Source of the DNA: a virus
Taxonomy: Duplodnaviria; Heunggongvirae; Uroviricota; Caudoviricetes
Virus record (IMG/VR): IMGVR_UViG_2693429700_000003
Location: 1 to 13,710 of that record
DNA: 13,710 nucleotides
Direction: 5' to 3' (one strand)
The position numbers were made by a program, and so were the translations under genes. Under the pieces are notes generated by a model. The model had not been told where the DNA came from. It saw only the letters and a list, made by a program, of their open reading frames with translations, and made no database searches. Numbering within the stretch: the first letter of the stretch is position 1; each line of letters opens with the position of its first letter. Shown in pieces: positions 1-13,710 of this stretch.

Positions 1-357
1 AACCATGACAGCGTTCTGTACTTCAGGGGCCAGCTTGTCAAAAGTGACGTTCATCGGATCTGATTCAGTCTCAACCGGGACAAAGGAAGCAGAGTCCTCA
101 TCCCAGCGGTTTTCCTGCATATATTCAGCATCCCAGGAATCGAGGGCAGGGCGGGGTATACCGGGTTTATCCTCGCAAACAAGAAATTTATAAGCGCAGT
201 CCTGAGCAGCCGGATATTGCTCCAGGAATTGCCAGGTAAATTTGGCACGGGCGCGGCGTTCGTCACCGGCTTCAATGGCAGTGGCTACAGCAATTGCACC
301 TTCTTCCTTTATTGCCTGTTCGTCCGGAATGGCGGCGCAAATAAAGACTTTACTCAT
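1..357 (-). CDS. Conserved prophage protein, N-terminal 119 codons only (gene runs off the left edge); occupies the ydfE position downstream of ydfD in Qin-type dicB operons
   Basis: ATG at 357-355 (minus) with GAGG 8 nt upstream; my manual translation MSKVFICAAIPDEQAIKEEGAIAVATAIEAGDERRARAKF... stays open to position 1; absent from the ORF track because there is no stop inside the window. Confidence 0.6.
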   Translation of the reverse strand, partial: MSKVFICAAIPDEQAIKEEGAIAVATAIEAGDERRARAKFTWQFLEQYPAAQDCAYKFLVCEDKPGIPRPALDSWDAEYMQENRWDEDSASFVPVETESDPMNVTFDKLAPEVQNAVMV

Positions 358-449
358 TTTGTTTTACCTCATTACAGATTTAAGGGTGAACAAATCCCTG
401 CCATTGCTGGCATATAAGAATGAAACCGGATATTTATTACGGAACTGTT

Positions 450-641
450 TTAAAGACCTGCCGGGATTTCGTTATTATCCTGGTGAATAACTTTATCGAC
501 CGGGTAACAGTTACCGGGAATTTTCTGTTCGGTTGCTGCAGTCACACACTCCTGCATTGTCCTGTGAACACTGACTGCAATATCAACTGGCTCTCCGGAA
601 ACAAGAAAAACTGTCAGAACAAGTGCAAATGCTGTATTCAT
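450..641 (-). CDS. Small membrane protein, 63 aa, YdfD-like (N-terminal hydrophobic helix MNTAFALVLTVFLVSG)
   Basis: Internal ATG of track ORF 450..695; AAAGGA 8 nt upstream; start overlaps the stop of the upstream gene (ATGA at 641-638), indicating translational coupling; size and position match ydfD of Qin. Confidence 0.65.
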   Translation of the reverse strand: MNTAFALVLTVFLVSGEPVDIAVSVHRTMQECVTAATEQKIPGNCYPVDKVIHQDNNEIPAGL

Positions 642-826
642 TGTGCACATCCTTTTTGTATCGGACGTAAACGGGCCAGCATTGAAAGAATGCATATTTT
701 ATTTAATAACTCCCGTTCGTGTTTTCTCTTGTTAATGGCATCTTCAGTAAATACAGGGTTACTGATAGTGACACCAATTTCAAAACAACCTTCAGACGTA
801 TTAACGTTTGGTAATAACGTTTCCAT
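638..826 (-). CDS. dicB: DicB-type cell-division inhibitor, 62 aa
   Basis: Internal ATG (826) of track ORF 638..931 with GAGGA 9 nt upstream; product METLLPNVNTSEGCFEIGVTISNPVFTEDAINKRK... agrees with my recollection of E. coli DicB (62 aa); lies immediately 3' of DicF as in Qin. Confidence 0.7.
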   Translation of the reverse strand: METLLPNVNTSEGCFEIGVTISNPVFTEDAINKRKHERELLNKICILSMLARLRPIQKGCAQ

Positions 827-995
827 TATCGCGTCCTCAACAATGAATTTTGTGATGCGGTGCCTGGTGCCTCCAGGTGACGTTAACCAGTTAACAATTA
901 ACGCCGGATACAGAGAATCCACCCATAACACTGTTTTTGGTTTTAACTGTTCCGCGTGCGCTGAGCCGCATTCACCGCATCACAAAATTCACTTT

Positions 996-1053
996 AAAAA
1001 GGGCGGCAGAGCAGTCACGGAGTAAAACTGATACCGCCAAACGTCACCAGAAA
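996..1053 (-). ncRNA. dicF: DicF small regulatory RNA (antisense regulator of ftsZ mRNA) with its intrinsic terminator hairpin and U-tail
   Basis: Minus-strand sequence TTTCTGGTGACGTTTGGCGGTATCAGTTTTACTCCGTGACTGCTCTGCCGCCCTTTTT matches my recollection of DicF essentially base for base; GGCGG...CCGCC stem followed by a T-run. Confidence 0.85.
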
Positions 1054-1384
1054 ATTGATAACAGAGGGCGTTGCAGCGGGGTTGTCGCTTAAGCGTATGG
1101 TCAACCTGACAACCCGGTGTCCTCAACGGGGAAGGAATAACCCCGCCATACTTACCGCCGCGCCATTTCGCGGAGTGCCACAACCGGAAGCGCACGGTCG
1201 AACTAAATTTAACGACACCGTACAGAGAGACCAATTTCGCCGTGCGCTTTCGCGTTATGCCCTGACTTTTCAGGGACATATCCTTTCAGTAAACTGTCAG
1301 TGCCGGATGTTCACCCGTGTCCGGCGCACGCACTCCACCTGACCCGTGGAGAACTCCTTAATTACCAACCCTCAGGAGGGTGAA

Positions 1385-1663
1385 ATGGATAAAAAGCAAA
1401 TTGAGGCCCTGCAATCTATTATTGAAAAACAAGATGAAGCTATCAGGATTCTTTCATATCGCACTGATATGATACTAAATATGCTTTCTGCATTAACGGC
1501 TGCGCTTGGTGGTACAAAAACAAACGTATACCGCGAAGTTGTTATTCAACAGATAGATAAATTTGAAAAAACCATACCAGGTATTAATGCTCATCTTGCA
1601 GAACAAGAGAAAGACCATGCTCTTATGGCAATTTCTTCAGTAGCTCTCCCGAAAGTTGAGTAG
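1385..1663 (+). CDS. Hypothetical protein, 92 aa, predicted helical/coiled-coil; opposite orientation to the surrounding operon
   Basis: ATG at 1385 preceded by AGGAGGG 5 nt upstream (internal start of track ORF 1346..1663); AT-rich; no competing minus-strand ORF of 60 aa or more across 1280-1622; 3' end overlaps the convergent 137-aa gene by 41 nt. Confidence 0.55.
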   Translation: MDKKQIEALQSIIEKQDEAIRILSYRTDMILNMLSALTAALGGTKTNVYREVVIQQIDKFEKTIPGINAHLAEQEKDHALMAISSVALPKVE

Positions 1664-2036
1664 TTTTAATTGTTGTTTTGAAATAATCACTGCTTTCACA
1701 TTTGAGTGATTTCATGGCAATCCAAATGCGGGCCTCTGTGCCTGCATTTGGTTCCAGTTGCTGTAGACGTTTTGCGTCTTCCAAAAGTAAGGCGATAATG
1801 TGTTTCAGCTTCTCATCATTTGCTTGATTCTTGTTTTCAGGCGAATTCTGTCCGCCGAATAGGCGCTTCTCTTCATACAGACCTATAAAGGCACGACGCA
1901 CGTTACCGGATATAGTATCGATGGTTTCTTTTTCTACGGTACTCAGGTCAAGAGTCGCCAGTTGAGAGCGAACCACATTCGATGCCATTTCCTGGAATGG
2001 TACTGGTAAATCTTTAAATTCCATCGTCAACCTCAT
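1623..2036 (-). CDS. Hypothetical protein, 137 aa (133 aa if started at ATG 2024 with GAGG upstream); unknown function
   Basis: Track ORF; start ATG overlaps the stop of the upstream ydfA-like gene (ATGA at 2038-2034); AT-rich relative to flanks. Confidence 0.65.
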   Translation of the reverse strand: MRLTMEFKDLPVPFQEMASNVVRSQLATLDLSTVEKETIDTISGNVRRAFIGLYEEKRLFGGQNSPENKNQANDEKLKHIIALLLEDAKRLQQLEPNAGTEARIWIAMKSLKCESSDYFKTTIKTTQLSGELLKKLP

Positions 2037-2188
2037 CAGTCAGTGTTTCTGGTTAACCAGCGACGCGCGCCAGCTTCAGTTTTAAACGTTTTGCTTCTGG
2101 TATACGCCATCGCGGTAAACGTGCCGTCCTGGTTGGGAAACACGCCGTACACCAGAGATTCGTTGTTGCCAAGATCGATAGTATCCAT
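2036..2188 (-). CDS. Small protein, 50 aa, YdfA-like first gene of the repressor-controlled leftward operon
   Basis: Internal ATG (2188) of track ORF 2036..2281 with GAGG 5 nt upstream; the track's longer start at 2281 lies inside the predicted promoter/operator and has no RBS; product MDTIDLGNNESLVYGVFPNQDGTFTAMAYTRSKTFKTEAGARRWLTRNTD. Confidence 0.55.
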   Translation of the reverse strand: MDTIDLGNNESLVYGVFPNQDGTFTAMAYTRSKTFKTEAGARRWLTRNTD

Positions 2189-2265
2189 GCTGACCTCATT
2201 TCCCCTTAACGCCAGGGTAGCGGAACTGTTTGCTGAGAACACCGTGCGGTGTCTTGATGGGTGGT

Positions 2266-2320
2266 AATTTAGTTTTCTCATGAAGGTTGGTCAAGCGTTT
2301 TTAATGAGAAAACTCAATAT
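2266..2320 (-). promoter_or_regulatory. Leftward early promoter with repressor operators (dicB-operon promoter equivalent): -35 TTGACC (plus 2289-2294 complement), 17-bp spacer, -10 TAAATT (2266-2271 complement)
   Basis: 14-bp TGAGAAAACTCAAT at 2305-2318 is identical to the operator at 2839-2852 in the repressor/cro intergenic region; inverted partial copy at 2271-2283. Confidence 0.5.
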
Positions 2321-2379
2321 TTAATGCAAAATAAAGCCAATACATTGAAATGTAAGGCTTTAAAATTTGTGAAGGGGGG

Positions 2380-2787
2380 TTACTGATGTTTGTTACGTTT
2401 GCGAGCTTCTAGTAGCTCGGTGAATAGGCGATTAAAATTCTCAACGCGGGCACGGAGTTCGCTGATTTGTGCTTGCTGCTCTGATTTTGGAAGTGCGCGA
2501 TACAATCGCAACATCTCCAACTCATCTTCCGATAAGTCTAAGGCGCTGTTGAGTGCAACTGGTGGATCTGGTGTTTTATCCTCGTCACCAAACAGTATCC
2601 AAGTTGGTGAACATTGCAATACCTCAGCCAGGCGATGCAAATTTTGCCCACGCGGGGCTGTATGGTCGCTTTCCCATAGTGAAATTGATGAGCCAGATAC
2701 GCCAGCGGCTTTGCTTAAATCGTTTTGACTTAAACCAACCTGTTTGCGTCTTTCTCTAATTCGTTGACCTAAAGTTTTCTCGTTCAT
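2380..2787 (-). CDS. dicA: DicA-type HTH (Xre/cI-like) prophage repressor, 135 aa
   Basis: Track ORF; N-terminal HTH (LSQNDLSKAAGVSGSSISLWE); motif VLQCSPTWILFGDEDK matches my recollection of E. coli DicA; divergent from a cro-like gene with operators between them. Confidence 0.8.
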   Translation of the reverse strand: MNEKTLGQRIRERRKQVGLSQNDLSKAAGVSGSSISLWESDHTAPRGQNLHRLAEVLQCSPTWILFGDEDKTPDPPVALNSALDLSEDELEMLRLYRALPKSEQQAQISELRARVENFNRLFTELLEARKRNKHQ

Positions 2788-2864
2788 ATTTAGATATCTT
2801 AATAACCCTTGACTTGAGATTCCTTGAGTGATTACTATTGAGAAAACTCAATTTTGGAGGGGTG
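2788..2864. promoter_or_regulatory. Divergent immunity-switch region: rightward promoter (-35 TTGACT 2809-2814, -10 ATTACT/TACTAT 2831-2838) and operator half-sites TTGAG/CTCAA, including the palindrome TTGAGAAAACTCAA (2839-2852)
   Basis: Direct inspection; the palindrome sits between the -10 and the cro RBS GGAGG (2855-2859). Confidence 0.55.
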
Positions 2865-3092
2865 ATGTTTAAATCAGACGTAATTAATTTTTATGGGACG
2901 AAAGCCAAAGTAGCGAAAGCTGCTGGTGTTGATCCATCTGCTGTTTCTCAATGGGGGGAGCTGGTTCCTGAAGGTCGCGCGATGCGCCTGCAAGAGGCAT
3001 CCGGCGGGGAACTTCAGTACGACCCCAAAGTTTATGACGAATATCGTAAGGCAAAGCGGGCGGGGCGGTTGAACAATGAAAATCACCCCTGA
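2865..3092 (+). CDS. dicC: Cro-like HTH regulator, 75 aa (DicC-type)
   Basis: ATG 2865 with GGAGG 5 nt upstream (track ORF 2838..3092 begins at an upstream TTG); divergent from the repressor; C-terminal PEGRAMRLQEASGGELQYDP fits the DicC/Cro family as I recall it. Confidence 0.7.
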   Translation: MFKSDVINFYGTKAKVAKAAGVDPSAVSQWGELVPEGRAMRLQEASGGELQYDPKVYDEYRKAKRAGRLNNENHP

Positions 3093-3627
3093 ACAGGTTT
3101 GTGAGGCTCTGGATGCCTGGGTGTGCCGACCAGGAATGACACAGGAGCAGGCGACGATATTAATCACGGAAGCATTCTGGGCTCTGAAAGAACGCCCGAA
3201 CATCGATGTTCAACGCGTCACGTTTAATGATGGCGAGGTTGATCAACGGGCGCTGGGCGTTAACCGGGTGAAGATATTCGAACGCTGGAAAGCTATCGAC
3301 ACCAGGGATAAGCGGAAAAAATTCACGGCGCTGATTCCGGCAATTATGGAGGCTATCCGAATTAGTGATTTCAGGTTGTATCGTGAGATCAGTGATGGAA
3401 AAAGCATTACGTACATGATCGCCGGATTAAACAAAGAATATGGCGATGTGGTGGAGTCCGGGCTGCTTTTTGCGGATCCAGCTGTTGTGGAACGTGAGAC
3501 TGACGAGCTTATAGAAAAAGCTATTGCTTTCAAGCATGCGTATCGTCAGCAATATCAATATTACTTTGCAGATAAACAAATGTCTGCCAGGGGTTCGTAT
3601 GAGTATCGATGCACTACGATGGGCTAA
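3076..3627 (+). CDS. Hypothetical early protein, 183 aa, in the CII position (possibly a YdaT-like CII analogue; function unverified)
   Basis: Track ORF; start overlaps the cro-like stop and end overlaps the O-like start, so it is in the rightward early operon. Confidence 0.6.
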   Translation: MKITPEQVCEALDAWVCRPGMTQEQATILITEAFWALKERPNIDVQRVTFNDGEVDQRALGVNRVKIFERWKAIDTRDKRKKFTALIPAIMEAIRISDFRLYREISDGKSITYMIAGLNKEYGDVVESGLLFADPAVVERETDELIEKAIAFKHAYRQQYQYYFADKQMSARGSYEYRCTTMG

Positions 3628-4639
3628 AAAGGTGAAAACCGGCAGTTCATCCAGTAAGTCTGTATTGACCTGGCTTGCTGATATGTGCGGTGCCGATTTG
3701 TGTGCATACCCGTCTGTATCTGCACTGGCAGAAGTAACGGAACTAAACAAAAAGACTGTGCAGGACAGCTTACGACACCTGATGGAGATTGGGTTAATTG
3801 TTGATACCGGTGAGAGAAAAGGCAGAACAAAGCAAATTGTGGTGTACCGACTTATCGGTGTAGAAGAAAGTGTTGCCGAGCCTGAATACACCCAAAAACG
3901 GGAGTCTTTAAAGGTGGGTAAAATTGGCGCTGTTAATAAAAACAGTACCGAAAATGGTTATGTTTCAGCACAAAACAGACCCAAAAACGGAACTCTTAGC
4001 TGCATGGAAAATAACCAAAGACACCCAAATTTTCCATCAAAGACACCCAAAAACGGATCACGGAACCCAAAGGAACCCAAAGATCTAAACCCCACACATA
4101 ACGCACGCGAGAGTGCTCCGACCAGTGAGCAGGAAGTTTTGTCGTTACAGGCAGCACCCCTTGTATTCCTGTATGGCCTGAGCGAACCCATCGGAAAATT
4201 TCCGATGACCGATAGCTGGTATCCGTCACGGGATTTTCGACGACGGGCTGCGTTGTGGGGGATGGCTTTGCCGGAGACAGAATTTACACCTGCTGAACTT
4301 GCCGCCTTCCGGGACTACTGGGCAGCGGAGGGGAAAGTGTTTACGCAGATTCAGTGGGAGCAGAAATTCGCCCGTCACGTAAATCACGTCAGGGCGCAGG
4401 TTAAACCAGTCAGCAAGGGGGTAAACCATGCAGCAGCACCAGGTGGCACCGCATCACGGGCAGTTCAGGAAATTCGGGCAGCACGTGAGCAGTGGGAACG
4501 TGAAAACGGATTTATCAGCGACGGAAACGGTCTGGAAGCTGTGGGAACTCATGGGGGAGGTTTATTCGAACCGCTGGACCCAGAAGAACGGGGCCGCACC
4601 TTCGAAGCTCTGGATTGCACAGATTGGCGCGATGACTGA
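3599..4639 (+). CDS. Replication initiator (lambda O-like role): N-terminal DNA-binding region, iteron-bearing linker, DnaT-like C-terminal segment; 346 aa as an ORF, but the true C-terminus may be earlier
   Basis: ATG 3599 (internal start of track ORF 3524..4639); N-terminal MSIDALRWAKKV...SVLTWLADMCG; origin-like iterons inside the coding region; followed by a P-like gene; the last ~70 codons are low-complexity and overlap the P-like frame. Confidence 0.65.
   Translation: MSIDALRWAKKVKTGSSSSKSVLTWLADMCGADLCAYPSVSALAEVTELNKKTVQDSLRHLMEIGLIVDTGERKGRTKQIVVYRLIGVEESVAEPEYTQKRESLKVGKIGAVNKNSTENGYVSAQNRPKNGTLSCMENNQRHPNFPSKTPKNGSRNPKEPKDLNPTHNARESAPTSEQEVLSLQAAPLVFLYGLSEPIGKFPMTDSWYPSRDFRRRAALWGMALPETEFTPAELAAFRDYWAAEGKVFTQIQWEQKFARHVNHVRAQVKPVSKGVNHAAAPGGTASRAVQEIRAAREQWERENGFISDGNGLEAVGTHGGGLFEPLDPEERGRTFEALDCTDWRDD
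3888..4085. repeat. Iteron cluster / putative phage origin of replication inside the initiator gene
   Basis: Repeated (A)GACACCCAAAAACGG-type units at 3888-3902, 3977-3990, 4018-4030 (variant), 4041-4056, plus two short AACCCAAAG copies at 4064-4082; in lambdoid phages the ori lies within the O linker region. Confidence 0.6.
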
Positions 4640-5093
4640 GCAGCAAATCCGACAGGTCTGCCGCCAGTGCATGGACCGCTGCCGGGCGGGTGAAACATGG
4701 CCTCCGGACCTGGCTGAGTTTGTGGCACTGATTTCGGAAAGCGGAGCCAATCCATTCGGTCTGACGGTGGATGCTGTGATGGAGGAGTACCGCCGCTGGC
4801 GCAATGAGTCCTGGCGATATGACGGAAGTGATAAGTACCCGTGGTCTCAGCCTGTGCTGTATCACATTTGCCTCGAGATGCGTTCAAAGGGGATTGAGCG
4901 CCAGATGACCGAAGGGGAATTAAAACGGCTTGCAGAACGGCAGCTGGCGAAATGGGCAAAGCATGTTAGTAACGGCCTGAGCGTTCCGCCAGTCCGGCGA
5001 CAACTGGCGGCACCCAAACGCCCGTCGGGGCCAACGCCAATTGAGTTGCTGAAACAGGAATATGAACGCCGGAAAGCGGCTGGGTTTGTTTGA
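4428..5093 (+). CDS. Lambda P-like replication protein (helicase loader), 221 aa; alternative starts at 4551 or 4632
   Basis: Track ORF; GGGGG 7 nt upstream of ATG 4428; by-eye similarity to lambda P (YPWSQPVLYHICLEMR vs YPWKSNAHYWLVTNLY; ELKRLAERQL vs AELRRKAADEL); no Walker A motif, so not DnaC-like. Confidence 0.65.
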   Translation: MQQHQVAPHHGQFRKFGQHVSSGNVKTDLSATETVWKLWELMGEVYSNRWTQKNGAAPSKLWIAQIGAMTEQQIRQVCRQCMDRCRAGETWPPDLAEFVALISESGANPFGLTVDAVMEEYRRWRNESWRYDGSDKYPWSQPVLYHICLEMRSKGIERQMTEGELKRLAERQLAKWAKHVSNGLSVPPVRRQLAAPKRPSGPTPIELLKQEYERRKAAGFV

Positions 5094-5125
5094 GTTGAGA
5101 AGTAATTTTTACCGGGAGGAAATTT

Positions 5126-5887
5126 ATGGAGACTGTTTTTGACGCACTGAAAGCGATGGGAAAAGCCACGTCGGTAGAACTGGCTGCGCGACTTGATATC
5201 AGTCGTGAAGAAGTGCTGAACGAACTATGGGAACTGAAAAAGGCTGGTTTCGTTGATAAAAGCGCGTACACCTGGCGTGTGGCTTATAACAACGTTCAGC
5301 GGGAACAGCCAGCGTCGGCAGAACTGTCGGAAGAAACCACCACGGCAACAGTCGCTAAAATTTCGGAGAGCGATTTAACTGCGACGATTGAACAACGTGG
5401 CCCACAAACGGCGGATGAACTGGCTACGTTTTTCGGCATCACATCACGCAAAGTGGCTTCAACGCTGGCAATGGCAATCAGTAAAGGTCGTCTGATTCGC
5501 GTTAATCAGAACGGTAAATTTCGTTACTGCATGCCGGGCGATAATTTACCAGCAGAGCCGAAAGCTGCATCGGTAGCGGAAACTGATGGTAAAGCCTTTC
5601 CTCAGCCAGCCGGTGTTGCGTTACCAGTACAGGAAGCTGCAACACAGGAAGATATTAAAACAGAAACTGTGGCGGACATTGTGCAGTCGTTGCCATCGTT
5701 TACCGAAACGCAAGCAGATGAGCTGATTTTTCCGTCCCTGCGCAGGGCAAACCTGGCGCTGCGCAGGGCGAAAAGTGATGTTCAGAAGTGGGAGCGAGTC
5801 TGCGCCGCGCTGCGGGAGCTGAACAAGCACCGGGATATTGTTCGACAGATTACTGATTCTTCCCGCCGTGTTGTATCGGAAAAGTGA
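5126..5887 (+). CDS. Hypothetical protein, 253 aa, with winged-helix-like segments at the N-terminus and mid-protein
   Basis: Track ORF; GGGAGG 7 nt upstream of ATG. Confidence 0.7.
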
Positions 5888-5902
5888 TTGCCGGAGGCGC
5901 TT

Positions 5903-6325
5903 ATGGCAAAAGTATTTACACAAGAAGAGCGGGAAAAAATTAAAGGGCAGGTTGTTGAACTAGTACGCCGGAGTGGGCGCGAGATGTTACGGCAACTGGA
6001 AGCCAAGACAGGTGCGACAAGATATCTGATGAGCGTTCTCGCCAGAGAGCTGGTTGCCAGTGGCGATGTATACAACTCTGGTTACGGGTTATTCCCGTCT
6101 GAACAGGCTCGTAAGGACTGGCAAAATGCCCGCAAAAAACTATCTAGGGCAAAGGTGAAGAAACCATCTGTGGTTGATCCGGATCTTATCTGGTCATTAC
6201 CAGACGGAGAAATACGCCGCTACGACAGGCGTCTGAACATAATCTGTAGCGAGTGCCGGAAGAGCGAAGCTATGCAGCGTGTACTGGCTTTCTATCAGGG
6301 TAATTTTCAGAAGGTGCTGTTGTGA
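5903..6325 (+). CDS. Hypothetical protein, 141 aa
   Basis: ATG 5903 with GGAGG 5 nt upstream (track ORF 5888..6325 begins at an upstream TTG). Confidence 0.65.
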   Translation: MAKVFTQEEREKIKGQVVELVRRSGREMLRQLEAKTGATRYLMSVLARELVASGDVYNSGYGLFPSEQARKDWQNARKKLSRAKVKKPSVVDPDLIWSLPDGEIRRYDRRLNIICSECRKSEAMQRVLAFYQGNFQKVLL

Positions 6326-6430
6326 GCCAAATTAACAATCGGAACTTCGTGAAGAGAAAGCATAATCCAAATCTGAATAATTAAGTTCAGCACTGTAAAT
6401 AAAATTTAATCCTTAACTGGAGGTATATTT

Positions 6431-6643
6431 ATGTTAAATACACAGAAAGCCATTAATGCGGAAAAATATAACGAGTGGGCAAGAAAATTCTCTGAGCAGA
6501 TTTTTAAAATTACTGGCGATGAGAATGTGGCAAAAAATGAATTAGAACCGTGGACACCTGAAGGAAACGCACCAAATTATTGCTGGTGGGAGGTTGATCC
6601 GGTTGATGCTGCAAATGAAGCCATGAGTTACCACAACGATTAA
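6431..6643 (+). CDS. Hypothetical small protein, 70 aa, in an AT-rich moron
   Basis: Track ORF; TGGAGG 7 nt upstream of ATG; marked drop in GC relative to flanks. Confidence 0.6.
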   Translation: MLNTQKAINAEKYNEWARKFSEQIFKITGDENVAKNELEPWTPEGNAPNYCWWEVDPVDAANEAMSYHND

Positions 6644-6675
6644 TGTCGGGAGGCCGCCCGAAAGGGCGGTAAGAA

Positions 6676-6894
6676 ATGACTACATTATTCAGAAAAGAAT
6701 ATCCGCAAAAAAGTAGGGCGACAGAATTTTTGTTTCTCATTCTGTTTATCGTATTGATGATACCGATATCCCCTCTAATTTTTGTCTGGGCAATCGGGAA
6801 AATAATTGAGCCAGTTACTGAATTGTATACCGACGTTGTATGGGCGTCGTTCAACACACTGCACAATAAAATTAATCCGTATAAGGAAAACTGA
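6676..6894 (+). CDS. Small membrane protein, 72 aa (hydrophobic core FLFLILFIVLMIPISPLIFVWAIG)
   Basis: Track ORF; follows a GC-rich hairpin (6652-6670); stop lies 1 nt before the next ATG. Confidence 0.55.
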   Translation: MTTLFRKEYPQKSRATEFLFLILFIVLMIPISPLIFVWAIGKIIEPVTELYTDVVWASFNTLHNKINPYKEN

Positions 6895-6895
6895 T

Positions 6896-7159
6896 ATGGC
6901 AACTTTGACAAAAAAAGAACGGGCATGGTTAAACGAATTACAGGAAGTTCTTGATCGCTGTCCATCACCGAAAAAAATTGGCTTTTACACCATTGGCGAT
7001 AAAAGCATTTACCTGTATGACCTACGCCGCATGGATGAAATCATGGAGGCTCTTGATAATCGTTCGTCGATGGATTGGTGTGTTGCTGTTCATGATATGA
7101 ATGCAGGGTTTGATGAAAAGATTTTGTTCCCCTCATCAGTTGAAAGCACTGCGGGTTAA
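6896..7159 (+). CDS. Hypothetical protein, 87 aa
   Basis: ATG 6896 with AAGGAAAA upstream (internal start of track ORF 6806..7159). Confidence 0.6.
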   Translation: MATLTKKERAWLNELQEVLDRCPSPKKIGFYTIGDKSIYLYDLRRMDEIMEALDNRSSMDWCVAVHDMNAGFDEKILFPSSVESTAG

Positions 7160-7169
7160 GGAGTAACAC

Positions 7170-8039
7170 ATGACCACTATTACCAAAGAACGTATTGAAT
7201 TGTTCATTAAAAATCCGGTTGAAAACGGGCTTACCCGTGGTGAACAAATGGAACTGGCACGGATTGCGCTGGCATCGCTGGAAGCAGAGCCGGTGGCAAA
7301 GATTATAGCTCATTACCCATTAGGGGTTGACGTAGGCAAACAAAAATTCGTACAGGCCATTAGAGAGCTTCCTGACTTTGGCGGATATCTATTTGCCGCC
7401 CCTCCAGCGCCGATAGTGCCGGAAGAAATGTATTGGCAGGATGCGCCAGTTGAAGGCAGCAGCAAAGCGGCTGCATACGCTACAGGCTGGAACGATTGCC
7501 GCGAAGCCATGCTTCAGTCCGGAAACTTTCGGGAAAATAAAGATTCGTCAACCAATAATTTTCGGAAAATCCCGGAAGCGTCAACCAGCTCTCCGGTAAC
7601 TCCGGCTCTTCTGCCTGGTGGTTTCACCATTGAGGAGGCGAAGGAATTACATGAAGACCTGGTACGCAGCCACATAAGCAAGGCCTTAAGTGGCGAAAAG
7701 ATGAAAAAGAAAGATCGCGATGCTGATTTGCGCTGGATTCATGGCGTTATAGTTCAGGCAGCGTGGTTTGTAAAAGCATCACTGGAGCAGAATGCACTAT
7801 CGGGCAACTATCCGGTAACTCCGGATAGTTGGATAAGCTGTAGTGAGCGAATGCCGGATACCAAAACAGCCGTTCTTGTTGCCGTGGAGTTTGACAGGAA
7901 AGGTGACTGGCGAATGAAATGGGCGACTTACATCCCGGGTCATCCTGACGCTAATGATGGGTGGATAATTCCTGGTGCGTCGTGGAAACCGTCACACTGG
8001 ATGCCGCTACCAGAACCGCCGCAGGAGGTGCGCCAATGA
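7170..8039 (+). CDS. Prophage protein, 289 aa, with DUF551-like C-terminal domain (...SHWMPLPEPP)
   Basis: Track ORF; AAGGAG upstream; the C-terminal tryptophan/proline-rich signature is typical of DUF551 proteins of enterobacterial prophages. Confidence 0.7.
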   Translation: MTTITKERIELFIKNPVENGLTRGEQMELARIALASLEAEPVAKIIAHYPLGVDVGKQKFVQAIRELPDFGGYLFAAPPAPIVPEEMYWQDAPVEGSSKAAAYATGWNDCREAMLQSGNFRENKDSSTNNFRKIPEASTSSPVTPALLPGGFTIEEAKELHEDLVRSHISKALSGEKMKKKDRDADLRWIHGVIVQAAWFVKASLEQNALSGNYPVTPDSWISCSERMPDTKTAVLVAVEFDRKGDWRMKWATYIPGHPDANDGWIIPGASWKPSHWMPLPEPPQEVRQ

Positions 8040-8119
8040 ACTGGCCTGAAGCATTTGCAATTACAGGCGTTGCTATGGCTATCGCTTTTTTAGTATATGT
8101 TATTTGTCGGTGGGGGTAA
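8036..8119 (+). CDS. Tiny hydrophobic peptide, 27 aa (MNWPEAFAITGVAMAIAFLVYVICRWG)
   Basis: Not in the ORF track (too short); GGAGG 8 nt upstream; ATG overlaps the stop of the DUF551 gene (ATGA at 8036-8039); predicted single transmembrane helix. Confidence 0.45.
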   Translation: MNWPEAFAITGVAMAIAFLVYVICRWG

Positions 8120-8154
8120 AAACGTTCGCCGGGATTAACACCAAAGGAGGGAAT

Positions 8155-8259
8155 ATGTCGGATGATATATCACTGGCAATGGAAGGTGCGCTGGCTGTTG
8201 TTGCTGTTGTGGGCGTTTACTGCCTGGTTGTGTTTTTGATGGATCGACTAGGGAACTGA
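8155..8259 (+). CDS. Tiny hydrophobic peptide, 34 aa (MSDDISLAMEGALAVVAVVGVYCLVVFLMDRLGN)
   Basis: Not in the ORF track; AAAGGAGGG 4 nt upstream of ATG; predicted single transmembrane helix. Confidence 0.45.
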   Translation: MSDDISLAMEGALAVVAVVGVYCLVVFLMDRLGN

Positions 8260-8267
8260 ATTCATTA

Positions 8268-8289
8268 CGATATGGGAATTCCCATATCG
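8268..8289. repeat. Perfect 22-bp palindrome CGATATGGGAATTCCCATATCG (candidate protein-binding site or RNA hairpin)
   Basis: Direct inspection; centred on GAATTC; immediately downstream of the second tiny peptide ORF. Confidence 0.6.
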
Positions 8290-8448
8290 GGTAAAAACGG
8301 TTTGCGGGAAAAGGAGAGTTAAGTAGAATTGCTGCGGGTGCTTGAGGCTATCTGTCTCAGGCATGAACACCAAAAGGCAGATAGAGAAAAGCCCCAGTTA
8401 ACATTACGCGTCCGGCAAGACGCTTAACATTAATCTGAGGCCATATCT

Positions 8449-8655
8449 ATGCTCTACACACGTAGGTTAGCCTCTTACGGACCGAAAGGTCAAGGAGAAG
8501 CAGGCTATGAAGCAGCAAAAGGCGATGTTAATCGCCCTGATCGTCATCTGTTTAACCGTCATAGTGACGGCACTGGTAACGAGGAAAGACCTCTGCGAGG
8601 TACGAATCCGAACCGGCCAGACGGAGGTCGCTGTCTTCACAGCTTACGAACCTGA
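8449..8655 (+). CDS. mok-like overlapping reading frame (translation-coupling frame of a hok locus), 68 aa
   Basis: Track ORF; starts 58 nt upstream of hok and overlaps it out of frame, as mok does in hok/sok loci. Confidence 0.5.
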   Translation: MLYTRRLASYGPKGQGEAGYEAAKGDVNRPDRHLFNRHSDGTGNEERPLRGTNPNRPDGGRCLHSLRT

Positions 8656-8662
8656 GGAGTAA
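8507..8662 (+). CDS. hokD: Hok-family type I toxin (HokD/RelF-like), 51 aa
   Basis: Manual translation MKQQKAMLIALIVICLTVIVTALVTRKDLCEVRIRTGQTEVAVFTAYEPEE matches the Hok/Gef family as I recall it (hydrophobic helix then TRKxLCEVR motif); not in the ORF track (too short). Confidence 0.85.
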   Translation: MKQQKAMLIALIVICLTVIVTALVTRKDLCEVRIRTGQTEVAVFTAYEPEE

Positions 8663-8731
8663 GAGACCCGGCGAGGGAGAAATCCCTCGCCACCTCTGAT
8701 GTGGCAGGCATTCTCAACGCACCCGCACTTA

Positions 8732-8760
8732 ACCCGCTTCGGCGGGTTTTTGTTTTTATT
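8732..8760 (+). terminator. Rho-independent terminator at the 3' end of the hok mRNA
   Basis: ACCCGC-TTCG-GCGGGT hairpin followed by TTTTTGTTTTTATTTT. Confidence 0.75.
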
Positions 8761-8878
8761 TTCAACGCATTTGAAGTTCTGGACGGTGCCGGAATAGAAT
8801 CAAAAATACTTAAGTAGCGCGCAGGGATAAGAGGGATGGTCCCTTAAAGGGGAGAGCTAATTATCCGGAAGGATTCTG

Positions 8879-9130
8879 ATGATGAACATCGAAGAACTGC
8901 GTAAAATTTTTTGTGAAGATGGCCTCTATGCTGTGTGCGTTGAAAATGGAAATATTGTTAGTCATTACCGCATTGTGTGTTTGCAAAAAAATGGGGCTGC
9001 GTTAATTAATTTTGTGGATGCCCGAGTGACGGACGGATTTATCTTGCGCGACGGTGAGTTTGTCACTTCATTACAGGTATTGAAAGAGATCGGAATAAAA
9101 GCTGGCTTTTCTGCTTTTTCAGAAGAATAA
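8879..9130 (+). CDS. Hypothetical protein, 83 aa (same size and position as rem next to hokD in Qin; sequence identity unverified)
   Basis: Track ORF; GGAAGGA upstream. Confidence 0.6.
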   Translation: MMNIEELRKIFCEDGLYAVCVENGNIVSHYRIVCLQKNGAALINFVDARVTDGFILRDGEFVTSLQVLKEIGIKAGFSAFSEE

Positions 9131-9196
9131 ACTCATCTACAATCTTGCGCGGGGCTGAACTCCCGCTGAGTAACACCGTGCCACCGGAGAAAACCG

Positions 9197-9475
9197 ATGG
9201 CACGCAACGCAAAATATTACAAACATGATAATTCGACCGTTCTTGCCCACACGCACGAGCGGTATTCTCACGCATTTAAGTCAGACTGGTACCAGCATCC
9301 CCCATGCACTGAAGAACAGGCCGAATGGCTCATTCAGTGTTACCGCAGGCGCGGATGCGAGGTTAAAAAAGCCCTTAGCCTCGACTACCGTCACTGGATA
9401 ATCTCCGTCAGGCTGCCTTACTCCGAACGCCCACCGCGTCCGTCCCGCACATTCCAGCAACGCATCTGGAGGTAA
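9197..9475 (+). CDS. Hypothetical protein, 92 aa
   Basis: Track ORF; GGAGAAAA upstream of ATG. Confidence 0.55.
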   Translation: MARNAKYYKHDNSTVLAHTHERYSHAFKSDWYQHPPCTEEQAEWLIQCYRRRGCEVKKALSLDYRHWIISVRLPYSERPPRPSRTFQQRIWR

Positions 9476-9476
9476 C

Positions 9477-10535
9477 GTGCGGGTATTACTTCGACCTGTT
9501 CTGGTACCGGAACTCGGGCTGGTGATCGTTAAGCCGGGCCGTGAATCCATGCCGGTATTCCACAATACCCGGGTACTGGTGGAGCCGGAACCGAAAAGCA
9601 TGCGTAATCTGCCGTCCGGGGTCGTTCCTGCCGTTCGCCAGCCGCTGGCGGAGGATAAATCATTACTGCCATTTTTCAGCGACGAACGAGTGATTCGTGC
9701 TGCTGGTGGCGCTGGCGCACTGTCTGACTGGCTCCTGCGTCATGTCAAATCCTGCCAGTGGCCTCATGGTGACTACCATCACAGTGAAACCGTCATACAT
9801 CGTTATGGTACCGGCGCAATGGTGTTGTGCTGGCACTGCGACAACCAGCTGCGCGACCAGACCTCCGAATCACTCGGGCAACTTGCTCACCAAAACCTGT
9901 CTGCATGGATGATTGACGTCATACGCCATGCAATGAATGGCTCGCAGGAACGGGAATTATCGCTGGCTGAATTATCCTGGTGGGCGGTCCGCAATCAGGT
10001 GGCGGACGCGCTACCGGAAGCGGTATTACGTCGTTCGCTGGGGTTGCGTGCGGAAAAAATCCGCTCAATGTACCGTGAAAGCGACATCGTACCGGGAGAG
10101 CAGACCGCCACCAGCATACTGAAGCAGCGCACAAAAAATATTGCTCCGTTGCCTCACGCCCACCAGCAACAGAATCCACCACAGGAAAAGACGGTGGTCA
10201 GCATTGCCGTTGATCCGGAGTCACCGGCTCAGTATCTCCAGCGCCAGAAACCACAACGGGAAGATATGCCTGTATACACGCGTTGGGTAAAAACGCAGAA
10301 ATGCATGACGTGTGGCAATCAGGCAGATGATCCGCATCACATCATTGGTCATGGACTGGGAGGGATGGGAACAAAGGCTGATGATTTGTTTGTTATTCCG
10401 CTGTGCCGTAAATGCCATAGCGAACTACACGCCGGGGTAAAAGATTTTGAAGAAAAACACGGCAGCCAGCTGTTGTTGCTGATTCGTTTTTTAATGCACG
10501 CGAGAAATTCGGGTGTCCTGAAGTGGAAAGCATGA
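9477..10535 (+). CDS. DUF968-like prophage protein (YdfU-like), 352 aa, with C-terminal HNH/His-Me-finger-like motif
   Basis: Track ORF, GTG start with GGAGG 7 nt upstream; C-terminal CMTCGNQADDPHHIIGHGLGG...PLCRKCHSELH. Confidence 0.7.
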   Translation: MRVLLRPVLVPELGLVIVKPGRESMPVFHNTRVLVEPEPKSMRNLPSGVVPAVRQPLAEDKSLLPFFSDERVIRAAGGAGALSDWLLRHVKSCQWPHGDYHHSETVIHRYGTGAMVLCWHCDNQLRDQTSESLGQLAHQNLSAWMIDVIRHAMNGSQERELSLAELSWWAVRNQVADALPEAVLRRSLGLRAEKIRSMYRESDIVPGEQTATSILKQRTKNIAPLPHAHQQQNPPQEKTVVSIAVDPESPAQYLQRQKPQREDMPVYTRWVKTQKCMTCGNQADDPHHIIGHGLGGMGTKADDLFVIPLCRKCHSELHAGVKDFEEKHGSQLLLLIRFLMHARNSGVLKWKA

Positions 10536-10901
10536 ATGACTGAACGCATAGAATTTGTTTTGCCTTACCCGCCAACGGTGAACACTTACTGGCGACGTCG
10601 TGGCAGCACATATTTTGTATCAAAAGCCGGTGAGCGTTATCGCCGTGATGTGGCGCTTATTGTTCGCCAGCAGCGGCTGAAATTAAACCTGTCCGGAAGG
10701 CTGGCGATAAAGATTATTGCAGAGCCACCGGATAAGCGTCGTCGTGACCTGGACAATATCCTGAAAGCACCACTGGATGCGCTGACGCATGCCGGACTTC
10801 TCATAGACGACGAGCAGTTTGATGAAATCAATATTGTGCGCGGTCAGCTCGTTCCTGGGGGGCGGCTGGGCGTGAAGATTTACAAAATTGAGAGTGAGTG
10901 A
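10536..10901 (+). CDS. rusA: RusA Holliday-junction resolvase, 121 aa
   Basis: Track ORF; motifs PYPPTVNTYWRR and DKRRRDLDNILKAPLDALTHAG match my recollection of E. coli RusA; start overlaps the upstream stop. Confidence 0.85.
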   Translation: MTERIEFVLPYPPTVNTYWRRRGSTYFVSKAGERYRRDVALIVRQQRLKLNLSGRLAIKIIAEPPDKRRRDLDNILKAPLDALTHAGLLIDDEQFDEINIVRGQLVPGGRLGVKIYKIESE

Positions 10902-11452
10902 TCGTAAATATGATATATCCGGAAATTACAGGCAAAAGCGGCGAGCATTTACGTCTAAAAACGCTGGAAGCCGTCTGGATCCAGGGGAAATTACGGATGT
11001 GGGGGCGTTGGTCGTATATAGGTGGTGGCAAACCAGGAAATATGTTCAATCAGTTGCTGACATCCAAAAAACTGACAAAAACCGCGATCAATGAAGCCCT
11101 GCGTAGAATCAGGGAGTCAGGGATTGATAAACCAGAGCTGGAAGCATTCTTGCGAGAGATGATCGCTGGCAGACAGAAGAGCTGGTTGTCTCACTGTACT
11201 GATGCAGAGGCGTTACGCATTGATGGGGTGATAAGTAAAGCGCTTGCACGTTATCCTGGATTGATTGATATCCTGCGGCAAAGGTACGAAGGGCGGGGGA
11301 TGAGTAAACGCAAAATGGCTGAATTGTTGAATGAGGTTCACCCTGAGTGGTGCTATGCAACATGCCGCAATCGTATAGATATGTGGCTGAGAATAGCTGA
11401 GTTTATTCTGTATCCACTGATGCGAGATGCATTTTCTTTTACTGACGCTTAG
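10898..11452 (+). CDS. Late-gene antiterminator Q, 184 aa (alternative ATG at 10910)
   Basis: Track ORF (GTG start overlapping the rusA stop); lies immediately upstream of a promoter-plus-terminator region, the classic Q/PR'/tR' layout; family assignment is by position and size. Confidence 0.6.
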   Translation: MIVNMIYPEITGKSGEHLRLKTLEAVWIQGKLRMWGRWSYIGGGKPGNMFNQLLTSKKLTKTAINEALRRIRESGIDKPELEAFLREMIAGRQKSWLSHCTDAEALRIDGVISKALARYPGLIDILRQRYEGRGMSKRKMAELLNEVHPEWCYATCRNRIDMWLRIAEFILYPLMRDAFSFTDA

Positions 11453-11618
11453 AATCTGGAGGGCGTTTGTTGTTGCACGAAGAGGATTTTTGGCTGGTAG
11501 TAAGGTTTGTGCAGTTTTAGAAAAAAAGCTTGTATTTTTAGCCATAAACTGTTTCAATCCAGCTACGCTTCGCAAAGCTGTACCGCGAGGCGAATAGCAG
11601 ACATGGACACCTGAAAGA
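11453..11618 (+). promoter_or_regulatory. Putative late promoter PR' / Q-utilisation region (exact -35/-10 not resolved)
   Basis: 166-bp non-coding AT-rich segment between Q and a strong intrinsic terminator; candidate TTGNNN hexamers at about 11471 and 11508. Confidence 0.45.
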
Positions 11619-11641
11619 ACCCGCTTTATGCGGGTTTTTTT
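11619..11641 (+). terminator. Rho-independent terminator (tR' equivalent)
   Basis: ACCCGC-TTTAT-GCGGGT hairpin followed by TTTTTTT. Confidence 0.8.
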
Positions 11642-11764
11642 ATGCCTGAAAAACGGCACAGAACATTAAACGCGCTGGTTGTTGTGAATACTGGTCTTTC
11701 AGCTTGCTGGCTTTTTCGACAAGAGGTATTGGTATGTCACGTTAACCGGAAAAGGGAAAAAGGC

Positions 11765-11962
11765 ATGCTAAAACAGCAGGATATGACCGAAACCGCCAGA
11801 GTGGTGTTTAATGAATTAAGCGTCACCGAACCGGCGACCGTCGGGGAAATTGCGCAGAATACTGACCTTTCACGCGAACGCTGCCAGTTAATACTGACTC
11901 AGCTTGTTATGGCGGGTCTGGCAGATTATCAGTTCGGTTGTTACAGACGCCTTCCGCAGTGA
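11765..11962 (+). CDS. Small winged-helix-like DNA-binding protein, 66 aa
   Basis: Internal ATG (11765) of track ORF 11642..11962 with AGGGAAAAAGG upstream; the N-terminal extension from 11642 starts right after the terminator T-run without an RBS and looks non-protein-like. Confidence 0.5.
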   Translation: MLKQQDMTETARVVFNELSVTEPATVGEIAQNTDLSRERCQLILTQLVMAGLADYQFGCYRRLPQ

Positions 11963-12112
11963 AGGCTTTTTAATTTGTGGTAATGGGCGGCTGGTGGGTG
12001 TTAGCGGCACCTGCCAGCCATCTGCTCATGCGTTGGGGTCACAAGCAAACCTCAGGCCCATCTGCTTTGCGCAAAAGCGGTATGAGCCTATCAGAGAAGT
12101 GCTTATTGATCT

Positions 12113-13162
12113 ATGGCTAATACTGTAAAAATATCCAGTTGTGAGTTAATCAACGCTGATTGCCTGGAATTTATCCAGACCTTACCGGAAAATTCTGTCG
12201 ATCTGATAGTCACAGACCCGCCATACTTTAAAGTGAAGCCCGAGGGCTGGGATAACCAGTGGGAGGGCGACGATGATTACCTGAAATGGCTGGACCAGTG
12301 TCTGGCGCAGTTCTGGCGGGTACTGAAGCCTACCGGAAGTCTTTACCTGTTCTGTGGTCATCGCCTGGCATCTGACACCGAAATCATGATGCGTGAGCGC
12401 TTTAATGTGCTGAACCACATTATCTGGGCGAAGCCGTCCGGACGCTGGAACGGGTGCAATAAGGAAAGTCTGCGGGCGTATTTTCCGGCAACAGAGCGCA
12501 TTCTGTTTGCAGAACATTATCAGGGACCGTATCGCCCGAAAGATGATGGCTATGTGGAGCAGGGGCGCGAGCTAAAACAGCACGTCATGGCCCCGCTGAT
12601 TTCTTACTTTCGTGATGCGCGTAAATCACTGGGAATAACGTCAAAACAGATAGCGGAAGCCACCGGAAAGAAAAACATGGCTTCGCACTGGTTTGGTGCC
12701 AGTCAGTGGCAGTTACCGAACGAGGGTGATTACAATAAATTGCAGGCGTTGTTTGCGCGTGTTGCGGCAGAAAAACATCAGCGCGGGGAACTGGAAAAGC
12801 CACACCACCAGCTGGTCAGCACATACAGTGAGCTGAACCGGCAGTATACGGAACTGCTGAGTGAATATAAAAATTTGCGGCGGTATTTCGGTGTGACGGC
12901 GCAGGTTCCGTACACCGATGTCTGGACGCATAAACCGGTGCAGTACTATCCAGGGAAACATCCGTGCGAAAAACCGGCAGAAATGCTGCAGCAGATAATC
13001 AACGCGAGCAGTCGTCCGGGAGACCTGGTTGCAGATTTTTTTATGGGTTCAGGTTCAACGGTAAAAGCGGCGATGGCACTGGGGCGTTGTGCGATTGGTG
13101 TTGAGCTGGAGACCGGACGTTTTGAACAGACAGTCAGGGAAGTTCAGGATTTAATCGTTTGA
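12113..13162 (+). CDS. DNA methyltransferase, beta class (N6-adenine or N4-cytosine), 349 aa; no partner restriction endonuclease in the window
   Basis: Track ORF; motif IV TDPPYF near the N-terminus and motif I FFMGSGST near the C-terminus (beta-class order). Confidence 0.8.
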   Translation: MANTVKISSCELINADCLEFIQTLPENSVDLIVTDPPYFKVKPEGWDNQWEGDDDYLKWLDQCLAQFWRVLKPTGSLYLFCGHRLASDTEIMMRERFNVLNHIIWAKPSGRWNGCNKESLRAYFPATERILFAEHYQGPYRPKDDGYVEQGRELKQHVMAPLISYFRDARKSLGITSKQIAEATGKKNMASHWFGASQWQLPNEGDYNKLQALFARVAAEKHQRGELEKPHHQLVSTYSELNRQYTELLSEYKNLRRYFGVTAQVPYTDVWTHKPVQYYPGKHPCEKPAEMLQQIINASSRPGDLVADFFMGSGSTVKAAMALGRCAIGVELETGRFEQTVREVQDLIV

Positions 13163-13211
13163 AACGGATGAGATTGCAGAATTAATTACGCACCATTATT
13201 ATTCTGCTCCC

Positions 13212-13287
13212 GGCCCTTTAGCTCAGTGGTGAGAGCGAGCGACTCATAATCGCCAGGTCGCTGGTTCAAATCCAGCAAGGGCCACCA
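13212..13287 (+). tRNA. tRNA with CAU anticodon, ileX/ileZ-like (tRNA-Ile2 type read after lysidine modification; Met not excluded)
   Basis: Manual cloverleaf: acceptor GGCCCTT/AAGGGCC, D-arm TAGCTCAGTGGTGAGAGC, anticodon loop CTCATAA, T-loop GGTTCAAATCC, 3' ACCA; close to my recollection of E. coli ileX. Confidence 0.8.
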
Positions 13288-13288
13288 A

Positions 13289-13365
13289 CCGCCACTAGCT
13301 CATCAGGAAAGAGCGTCAACCCTTTAAGTTGAGTGTGCGAGGTTCGAGTCCCCGGTGGCGGTCCA
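13289..13365 (+). tRNA. tRNA of uncertain identity: anticodon loop CCUUUAA (UUU at positions 34-36, Lys-like, but with non-canonical C33)
   Basis: Manual cloverleaf: acceptor CCGCCAC/GTGGCGG (perfect 7 bp), D-stem GCTC/GAGC, anticodon stem TCAAC/GTTGA, T-arm with TTCGAGT loop and one mismatch, 3' TCCA; starts 1 nt after the preceding tRNA. Confidence 0.55.
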
Positions 13366-13367
13366 GT

Positions 13368-13443
<76 letters not shown>

Positions 13444-13446
13444 TAT

Positions 13447-13521
<75 letters not shown>

Positions 13522-13525
13522 GTTA

Positions 13526-13573
13526 GAGTCTTTCAGTCTGCGATGATGGGAAATCCCGGAGTGACTGAAAGAC
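13526..13573 (+). other. Structured element after the tRNA cluster: 11-bp inverted repeat GTCTTTCAGTC / GACTGAAAGAC around a 24-nt loop that itself contains GGGAAATCCC
   Basis: Direct inspection; possible processing site or terminator-like hairpin, but no clean U-tail. Confidence 0.4.
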
Positions 13574-13580
13574 GTTTAGG

Positions 13581-13653
13581 TTATGAATGATCGCTTTTTT
13601 TTGCAAAATTGCTGTGCAGAAATACTAACCTTCGGGCAGGCGATCATTCATAA
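13581..13653. repeat. Perfect 14-bp inverted repeat TTATGAATGATCGC ... GCGATCATTCATAA separated by 45 nt, with a T8 run next to the left arm
   Basis: Direct inspection. Confidence 0.5.
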
Positions 13654-13710
13654 GCACTCTGCTTTTATTCCGATTAACTGTGGGTGGTTTGTTGGATAGA
13701 GTGCTTTCCT

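Follow-up and report, generated by a model that had tools for sequence, protein, structure and literature searches.

One of several interchangeable accessory genes lies backwards in the dicBF operon of a Qin-type prophage

In this study, we analysed a stretch of 13,710 nucleotides (nt), positions 1 to 13,710 of the IMG/VR virus record IMGVR_UViG_2693429700_000003 (Caudoviricetes; hereafter the window), and focused on the interval 1385-2036, where two genes converge between a ydfA-like gene and the gene for the small RNA DicF. The results showed that a Qin-type lambdoid prophage has here an AT-rich cassette, exchanged horizontally, which fills the variable ydfB/ydfC slot of its dicBF operon. 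The cassette carries a gene of 133 amino acids (aa) on the operon strand (minus) and a 92-aa gene on the plus strand. The 92-aa gene is one of several interchangeable accessory genes that lie backwards in this repressor-controlled early operon in E. coli and Salmonella prophages. We consider it probable, if well short of certain, that the mosaic cassette holds two real genes that are functionally independent of each other, and that the 92-aa gene is moron-type cargo antisense to the dicBF operon.

The dicBF operon comprises well-studied toxic genes of a cryptic prophage that E. coli has kept. What stands out at this locus is a single leader that serves at least five ORFan cargo genes, antisense to that operon. 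As things stand, it is a case of ordinary prophage mosaicism, with a moron in a variable slot and an uncharacterised protein. Both proteins are already catalogued as hypothetical in RefSeq and PHROGs, and neither is new as a sequence.

The mosaic cassette and its two genes

We aligned the window with the Qin prophage of E. coli K-12 by blastn. Positions 400-1370 and 2057-2259 aligned at 94-95% identity, and the cassette between them (1371-2056) had no match in Qin, which carries ydfB (42 aa) and ydfC (72 aa) in the corresponding place. The interval had a guanine-cytosine (GC) content of 40.2%, compared with 48.5% for the window, placing it among the lowest 1.7% of equal-sized windows. For the 92-aa gene the value was 36.9% (lowest 2% of windows), compared with 53.9% and 50.0% in its flanks. 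Further mosaic joints were located at 1343/1344 and 1622/1623 (locus L012) and at 1387/1388 and 1864/1865 (locus L014). On one side the joints fall at the ATG of the cargo or at the second leader hairpin (hp2), and on the other side at the stop codon of the partner gene or at the end of its N-terminal domain. The site is a cargo-exchange point between two conserved arms, the leader and the N-terminal domain. In the literature, the dicBF operon is described with ydfA, ydfB, ydfC, a long untranslated region and non-conserved genes, with no mention of an opposite-strand gene in the ydfA-dicF stretch (PMC5069750, PMC10448788).

An earlier note on this DNA had described a 137-aa minus-strand gene and a 92-aa plus-strand gene between the ydfA-like gene and DicF, an AGGAGGG ribosome-binding site, a 41-nt overlap of the 3' ends, a composition richer in AT than the flanks, and a horizontally acquired cassette in a slot where Qin-type prophages carry the short ydfB and ydfC. 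All of these points were confirmed, with the start of the minus-strand gene corrected to give 133 aa. The idea that the 137-aa open reading frame (ORF) is an unbroken form of ydfB plus ydfC was rejected, as the best BLASTP E values were 27 for YdfB and 1.7 for YdfC and blastn gave no match.

The 92-aa gene (WP_000358771.1) occupies positions 1385-1663 of the plus strand. The longest ORF there, 1346-1663, corresponds to 105 aa; the ATG at 1385 gives the 92-aa form, and a Shine-Dalgarno sequence AGGAGGG, read from the sequence, lies at 1374-1380, 4 nt before this ATG. The protein matched phrog_18692 over its full length (E 6e-63). Its Salmonella copies are 71-74% identical at the protein level, and the nucleotide differences lie mostly at third codon positions. 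In the part of the gene outside the overlap, the ratio of nonsynonymous to synonymous substitution rates (dN/dS, omega) was 0.23, 0.16 and 0.08 in three pairs, while the five other frames of the same DNA contained 2-8 stop codons each and gave ratios of 0.3-3. ORF length in the family is held at 90-93 aa down to 28-45% identity and in unrelated contexts. These results bear on the possibility that the plus-strand ORF arose by chance antisense to the operon and was over-annotated by pipelines. A small family with no known domain and a structure model of moderate confidence would fit such an origin, but the third-position substitutions, the constant length and the strong ribosome-binding site argue against it, and dN/dS together with the frame controls effectively refutes it. 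The earlier note had allowed for a non-conserved ORF with no translation signal and a non-coding substitution pattern, which is the opposite of what we found. As judged from the sequence comparisons, both overlapping genes are real and under purifying selection.

The family of the 92-aa protein is small. A single-sequence search returned 22 clusters, and a complete HMMER search of 1.84 billion representatives returned 15 matches, three of them long repetitive proteins that we took as spurious. A profile search raised the number to about 46 clusters among 5.8 billion. The hosts were E. coli, Salmonella enterica, S. bongori and Klebsiella oxytoca, with no others, and tblastn found no match to the protein among 50,697 deposited phage genomes. 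Among 5426 complete E. coli genomes, 127 had the 92-aa gene, in nearly all cases with ≥99% identity, and 198 had a 91-aa subfamily (28% identity, E 9e-6); thus about 6% of complete E. coli genomes carry a conserved opposite-strand gene in the dicBF stretch. One natural lysogen is EPEC E2348/69 (locus E2348C_RS07385/RS07390). Residues L9, R26 and D28 are invariant in the family, and L31, S35, R50, E75, K76 and S85 are kept in at least 90% of sequences.

The 92-aa protein is predicted to be a soluble, acidic, three-helix protein. Its isoelectric point is 5.7, no transmembrane segment was predicted, and the AlphaFold model placed helices at residues 3-41, 48-59 and 69-84 with moderate confidence (mean predicted local distance difference test score, pLDDT, 69.6). 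When this model was compared with PDB and BFVD by Foldseek, generic helical bundles were all that came up, none of them with E <0.5, and a profile search of the family against PDB sequences reached a best E of 0.074. For both the 92-aa and the operon-strand protein, nothing rose above noise in Pfam, NCBIfam or PADLOC, the best domain match being RelB-like (E 0.011, 15.9 bits against a cut-off of 50), and PHROGs returned families of unknown function only. Seven members of the 92-aa family likewise had no match in a Pfam scan, and a literature search by protein accession found no paper. The 92-aa protein would most likely act by binding another protein.

The operon-strand gene (WP_001339605.1, phrog_1363) lies at 1623-2024 on the minus strand, within an ORF of 137 aa that extends to 2036. 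The second ATG is almost certainly the true start (MEFKDL..., 133 aa), because all homologues and the RefSeq entry begin there and a GAGG lies 6 nt upstream. Its PHROG matches divide into residues 5-66 and 73-121, and the similarities of the two parts mark it as a recombinant chimera of a widespread N-terminal domain and a motif of YmfJ from the e14 element. The N-terminal domain (1866-2024, minus strand; residues 1-53 of the 133-aa form, MEFKDLPVPFQEMASNVVRSQLATLDLSTVEKETIDTISGNVRRAFIGLYEEK) was found in about 1859 of the 5426 complete E. coli genomes, about a third. It is fused to at least three different C-terminal halves and behaves as a conserved recombination arm. The YmfJ-like half (1623-1820, minus strand) contains the motif LKHIIALLLEDAKRLQQLEPNAGTEARIWIA, and its identity with the N-terminal part of e14 YmfJ is 75% over residues 73-112 (E 3e-20). 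The motif LKHxIALLLEDAKRLQQxEPNAGTEARI is present, and the likeness covers these 40 residues, the rest of the protein being different. Over the first 36 aligned codons of the motif, omega was 0.12 against locus L010 and 0.08 between two Salmonella copies; synonymous sites were saturated against locus L004. In Salmonella, the YmfJ motif forms a separate 71-aa gene, and one copy of this gene follows a ydfB homologue. AlphaFold modelled the 133-aa protein poorly (pLDDT 55), too poorly for a fold search.

Partners, alternative cargo and the 41-nt overlap

Members of the 92-aa family were found in eight contexts, and in all of them position and orientation are constant, the gene converging on an adjoining early-operon gene, repressor gene or integrase gene. 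The partner is the 133-aa chimera in the E. coli Qin-like prophage of this window, a 71-aa YmfJ-like protein in Salmonella lambdoid prophages, and a 214-aa helix-turn-helix protein in a P2-like element. There is no partner and no overlap beside an S24 cI-type repressor (L016), where the gene has its own terminator-like hairpin, beside a P4-type integrase, or in a recombinant copy. The 91-aa subfamily represents another context of the same orientation. In all, the 92-aa protein family faces four different convergent neighbours or overlaps nothing.

The 3' ends of the two genes in the window overlap at 1623-1663, and this length of 41 nt is identical in the Salmonella and P2-like pairs. The tails of the three overlapping partners are similar to each other (TTQLSGELLKKLP, ARIAPTHLSEALLKKCT and GRITPSQIPEELLIRCS) and correspond to what the C-terminus of the 92-aa family (EK-H-L--ISSVALP) gives when its codons are read in antisense. 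We read the overlap as a by-product of packing, because this C-terminus is conserved also in family members that overlap nothing and because its codons hold an antisense stop. Whichever operon gene comes to abut the cargo would then end at that stop.

At least five types of cargo ORF, of 92, 91, 77, 73 and 57 aa, were found behind the same leader and ribosome-binding site. All five are preceded by CCAACCCTCAGGAGGGTGA(A)ATG, at 1371-1384 in the window and at the equivalent sites in L012, L014, L019 and L098. The 77-aa ORF (WP_000920491.1) is the cargo of O157:H7. The 91-aa protein is the sole cargo distantly related to the 92-aa protein. The 57-aa and 77-aa proteins and YmfI showed no homology to it, and the 73-aa cargo belongs to a different PHROG family (phrog_7249), with no direct comparison made between it and the 92-aa protein. 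At the same site the 92-aa gene is absent from K-12 Qin, from L013 and from 31 of 80 IMG/VR loci, and elsewhere other ORFs replace it.

These 80 loci, sampled for carrying the N-terminal domain, were surveyed for what lies opposite the operon gene. The 133-aa gene stood with an intact 92-aa gene at 39 loci. The other common C-terminal half (b-type, 36 loci) faced no opposite ORF at 31 loci, the 91-aa ORF at four and the 73-aa ORF at one. Disrupted 92-aa genes, each adjoining an intact 133-aa gene, accounted for six of 45. Five of these carried a one-base frameshift, an extra T in the run ATTCTTT (L026 and L061 types), some of which could be sequencing errors, and one carried an insertion sequence (L071). 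The 133-aa gene (93% identical DNA) was also found opposite the unrelated 57-aa ORF.

The earlier note had expected a toxin/antitoxin, abortive-infection or superinfection-exclusion module from the convergent, overlapping arrangement. The comparative evidence speaks against a two-protein module, because the partners change or vanish and disrupted 92-aa copies lie beside an intact 133-aa gene; nor was there a family match that would point to such a function. The antisense coupling that it had proposed is plausible at the RNA level, by analogy with ymfI-ymfJ and sieB-ydaF.

A specific form of such a module would be a pair like a pore-forming colicin and its immunity protein, in which the induced C-terminal half of the operon protein is harmful and the convergent gene constitutively supplies a protective protein. 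The cargo ORF and the C-terminal half of its partner do often swap jointly, the 92-aa gene with the YmfJ-like half, the 91-aa gene with the b-type half and the 77-aa gene with a third type, and e14 YmfJ also has a convergent, overlapping partner. However, physical linkage alone explains the joint swapping. Nor do cargo and half pair one-to-one. Opposite the YmfJ-like half stands the 92-aa gene, the 57-aa ORF or a disrupted 92-aa gene, the b-type half mostly occurs with nothing, and members of the 92-aa family stand alone beside a repressor or integrase. No toxin, immunity or defence model of Pfam, NCBIfam or PADLOC matched. We therefore regard this pairing as quite unlikely, and retain two functionally independent genes as the preferred reading.

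Leader, candidate promoter and locus context

Upstream of the cargo, the plus strand carries two leader hairpins, hp1 (1302-1325, GCCGGA..TCCGGC) and hp2 (1333-1351, CTCCAC..GTGGAG). The fold of the plus strand over 1297-1400 had an energy of -33.9 kcal/mol (z -2.66 against shuffled sequences), compared with a z of -1.37 for the minus strand. Across 11 loci, 84.6% of the hp1 and hp2 cells were paired, and four pairs had changed on both sides in a compensatory manner. No RNA family matched the leader in an Rfam search of 1040-2300 with E up to 5. A candidate promoter of the cargo lies at 1267-1295 on the plus strand, with a -35 element TTTTCA, a 17-nt spacer and a -10 element TAAACT (1290-1295). 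A -10-like hexamer was present 5-10 nt before hp1 in six of seven independent upstream contexts. These observations suggest that the 92-aa gene may have its own weak promoter, with a transcript that would start at the 5' hairpin, about hp1.

Together with a third hairpin at 1260-1275, hp1 and hp2 lie in the so-called long untranslated region upstream of DicF; the three hairpins are conserved from E. coli to Salmonella and persist in K-12 Qin (L003, about 3580-3660, minus strand). RNase III is known to process the dicBF transcript (PMC10448788). We considered the leader hairpins as the RNase III site of the 190-nt DicF precursor and dropped this idea, as the site calculated from that report lies about 110 nt nearer to dicF, near 1187.

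Several observations weigh against our preferred reading. K-12 Qin keeps the leader hairpins with no cargo at all, and hp2 in one Salmonella copy pairs fully on the minus strand only; the hairpins may serve the operon transcript instead of the cargo. The candidate promoter matches the consensus at 8 of 12 positions, below the scan threshold, and the p value of about 2.5e-4 for the -10-like hexamer is post hoc, from a test devised after looking at the sequences. Finally, among the closest relatives, E. coli and Salmonella (dS 0.7-1.0), the 92-aa gene and the YmfJ-like half have been inherited together over 560 nt, so that the two may be functionally linked.

Under the reading of moron-type cargo, the 133-aa gene would belong to a DicA-repressed early operon in the order ydfA, 133-aa gene, DicF, dicB and ydfD, and the 92-aa gene would have been inserted backwards behind a conserved leader consisting of the -10-like element, the two hairpins and the strong ribosome-binding site. 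We infer that a weak promoter of its own drives the 92-aa gene in the repressed prophage. The window scan found no terminator-like site on the plus strand after 1663, nor any between the two genes, so cargo transcription would run into the operon; conversely, operon transcription would probably enter the cargo. It is plausible from this arrangement that expression of cargo and operon is mutually exclusive, in the manner of an excludon.

A related possibility is that the plus-strand unit is mainly a brake in cis, in which antisense transcription and the RNA itself would limit leaky read-through from the promoter dicBp into the toxic dicF and dicB and the protein would be secondary. The unit is placed between dicBp and dicF, opposed to the direction of the operon, with no plus-strand terminator found behind it, its leader and promoter-like element are conserved even in the cargo-free K-12 Qin, and the dicBF transcript is a known target of RNase III processing (PMC10448788). 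On the other hand, purifying selection on the protein is clear (omega 0.08-0.23), some elements with a family member lack DicF or DicB, and the same report gives no hint of antisense control, although such control was not looked for there. We consider a predominantly antisense role unlikely, and continue to favour a protein-coding cargo gene.

A broader proposal, which we regard as rather improbable, is that the leader is a dedicated platform for interchangeable small proteins expressed in lysogens, that the 92-aa family is a new protective or host-modifying factor, and that convergent transcription gates dicF and dicB, or that the 92-aa protein is the protective partner of the variable C-terminal half. 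If the unit is transcribed in lysogens, it would add another level to the control of DicF and DicB and would supply a small set of accessory proteins that are candidates for effects on phage resistance or host physiology.

Overall, the window corresponds to the early region of a lambdoid prophage. The ydfA-like gene, the first of the operon, lies at 2036-2281 on the minus strand (Pfam DUF1391, E 5e-27; 94% identity to K-12 ydfA; RefSeq calls a 50-aa form). Downstream on the same strand are the DicF gene (1001-1052; Rfam RF00039, 76.7 bits) and, beyond it, dicB (638-823) together with a DUF1482/YdfD gene. Upstream of the ydfA-like gene, a DicA-like helix-turn-helix repressor is encoded at 2380-2787 (minus strand), and a promoter-like site at 2294-2266 (minus strand; TTGACC-17-TAAATT, 9/12, by consensus match only) is the putative equivalent of dicBp.

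The plus strand of the window carries a P22-Cro-like gene, a YdaT-like gene, replication genes, hok/sok, RusA, a Q-like gene, a methylase and four tRNAs. The YdaT-like gene (183 aa, 3076-3627, plus strand) lies 3' of the Cro-like gene with a weak family match (E 2e-5), and overlaps the start of a DnaT-domain replication gene at 3524-4639, taken as the longest ORF with a TTG start. A sok antitoxin RNA at 8336-8509 (Rfam, 109.5 bits) indicates that the nin-like region contains a type I toxin-antitoxin locus of the hok/sok kind. The tRNA cluster (13212-13521; Met-CAT, Lys-TTT, Thr-TGT and Gly-TCC) lies downstream of the Q-like gene (DUF1133) and an N6/N4 DNA methylase gene. In two of the compared loci, L012 (1401-1589) and L013 (901-1755), the stretch between the DicF-leader region and dicB has gained a Rha-family gene, accompanied by C4 antisense RNA and isrK (73.9 and 69.2 bits in Rfam); the Rfam run found no DicF in L012, and a dicB remnant is present in L013.

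Comparison with known systems

The closest described arrangement is the ymfI/ymfJ pair of e14 (L011, 2013-2600). In both cases a convergent pair lies directly beyond the immunity repressor gene, ymfK in e14, and the genes overlap at their 3' ends, by 63 nt between ymfI (plus) and ymfJ (minus) and by 41 nt here. The operon-strand protein shares with YmfJ the motif LKH(I/V)IALLLEDAKRLQQ(L/I)EPNAGTEARI. In contrast, YmfI (113 aa) is not similar to the 92-aa protein, and in the window the motif follows an unrelated N-terminal domain to which it is fused. The ymfJ gene is switched on late during the SOS response, with the repressor-controlled operon to which it belongs (PMC11002266), and ymfI-ymfJ and sieB-ydaF are both listed as convergent excludons of K-12 (PMC12288877), the behaviour that we suppose for the present pair. 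The ydfB and ydfC genes of K-12 Qin fill the corresponding slot, bounded by ydfA and the DicF leader, and also encode small uncharacterised proteins (PMC5069750), but neither resembles either protein of the window, and the K-12 slot has the leader hairpins only, with no opposite-strand gene.

Known Sie-type proteins have transmembrane segments. The sieB genes of Rac (sieB/ydaF), P22 and lambda are, like the 92-aa gene, accessory genes near the repressor that run against the direction of the early-left operon. This position and orientation, together with the moron-like traits of the 92-aa gene (AT-rich, facultative, and with its own terminator in the L016 relative), would suit a superinfection-exclusion or anti-phage factor of SieB type expressed in lysogens. 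We nevertheless consider this role very unlikely, given that the 92-aa protein is unrelated to SieB in sequence or family (no match in PADLOC or in Pfam, which includes the SieB family), that it has no membrane-spanning segment, and that disrupted copies are fairly common.

We also compared the pair with toxin-antitoxin and colicin systems. Type II toxin-antitoxin genes are co-directional, whereas the present genes converge on opposite strands, lack a recognisable domain and do not co-occur obligately. Type I toxins are shorter than about 60 aa and have a transmembrane helix; the proteins here have 92 and 133 aa, with maximal 19-residue hydropathies of 0.93 and 0.38, respectively. The C-terminal half does not vary one-to-one with the convergent gene as it would in a colicin-type system.

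The 92-aa gene comes close to the morons of lambdoid phages, with which it shares presence or absence at a fixed site and a deviant base composition (36.9% against 48.5% GC). In addition, it may have a promoter of its own, and a terminator follows its L016 relative. It differs from them in that the cargo lies inside and antisense to the operon, overlaps a resident gene, and has its leader and ribosome-binding site in common with at least four other cargo ORFs.

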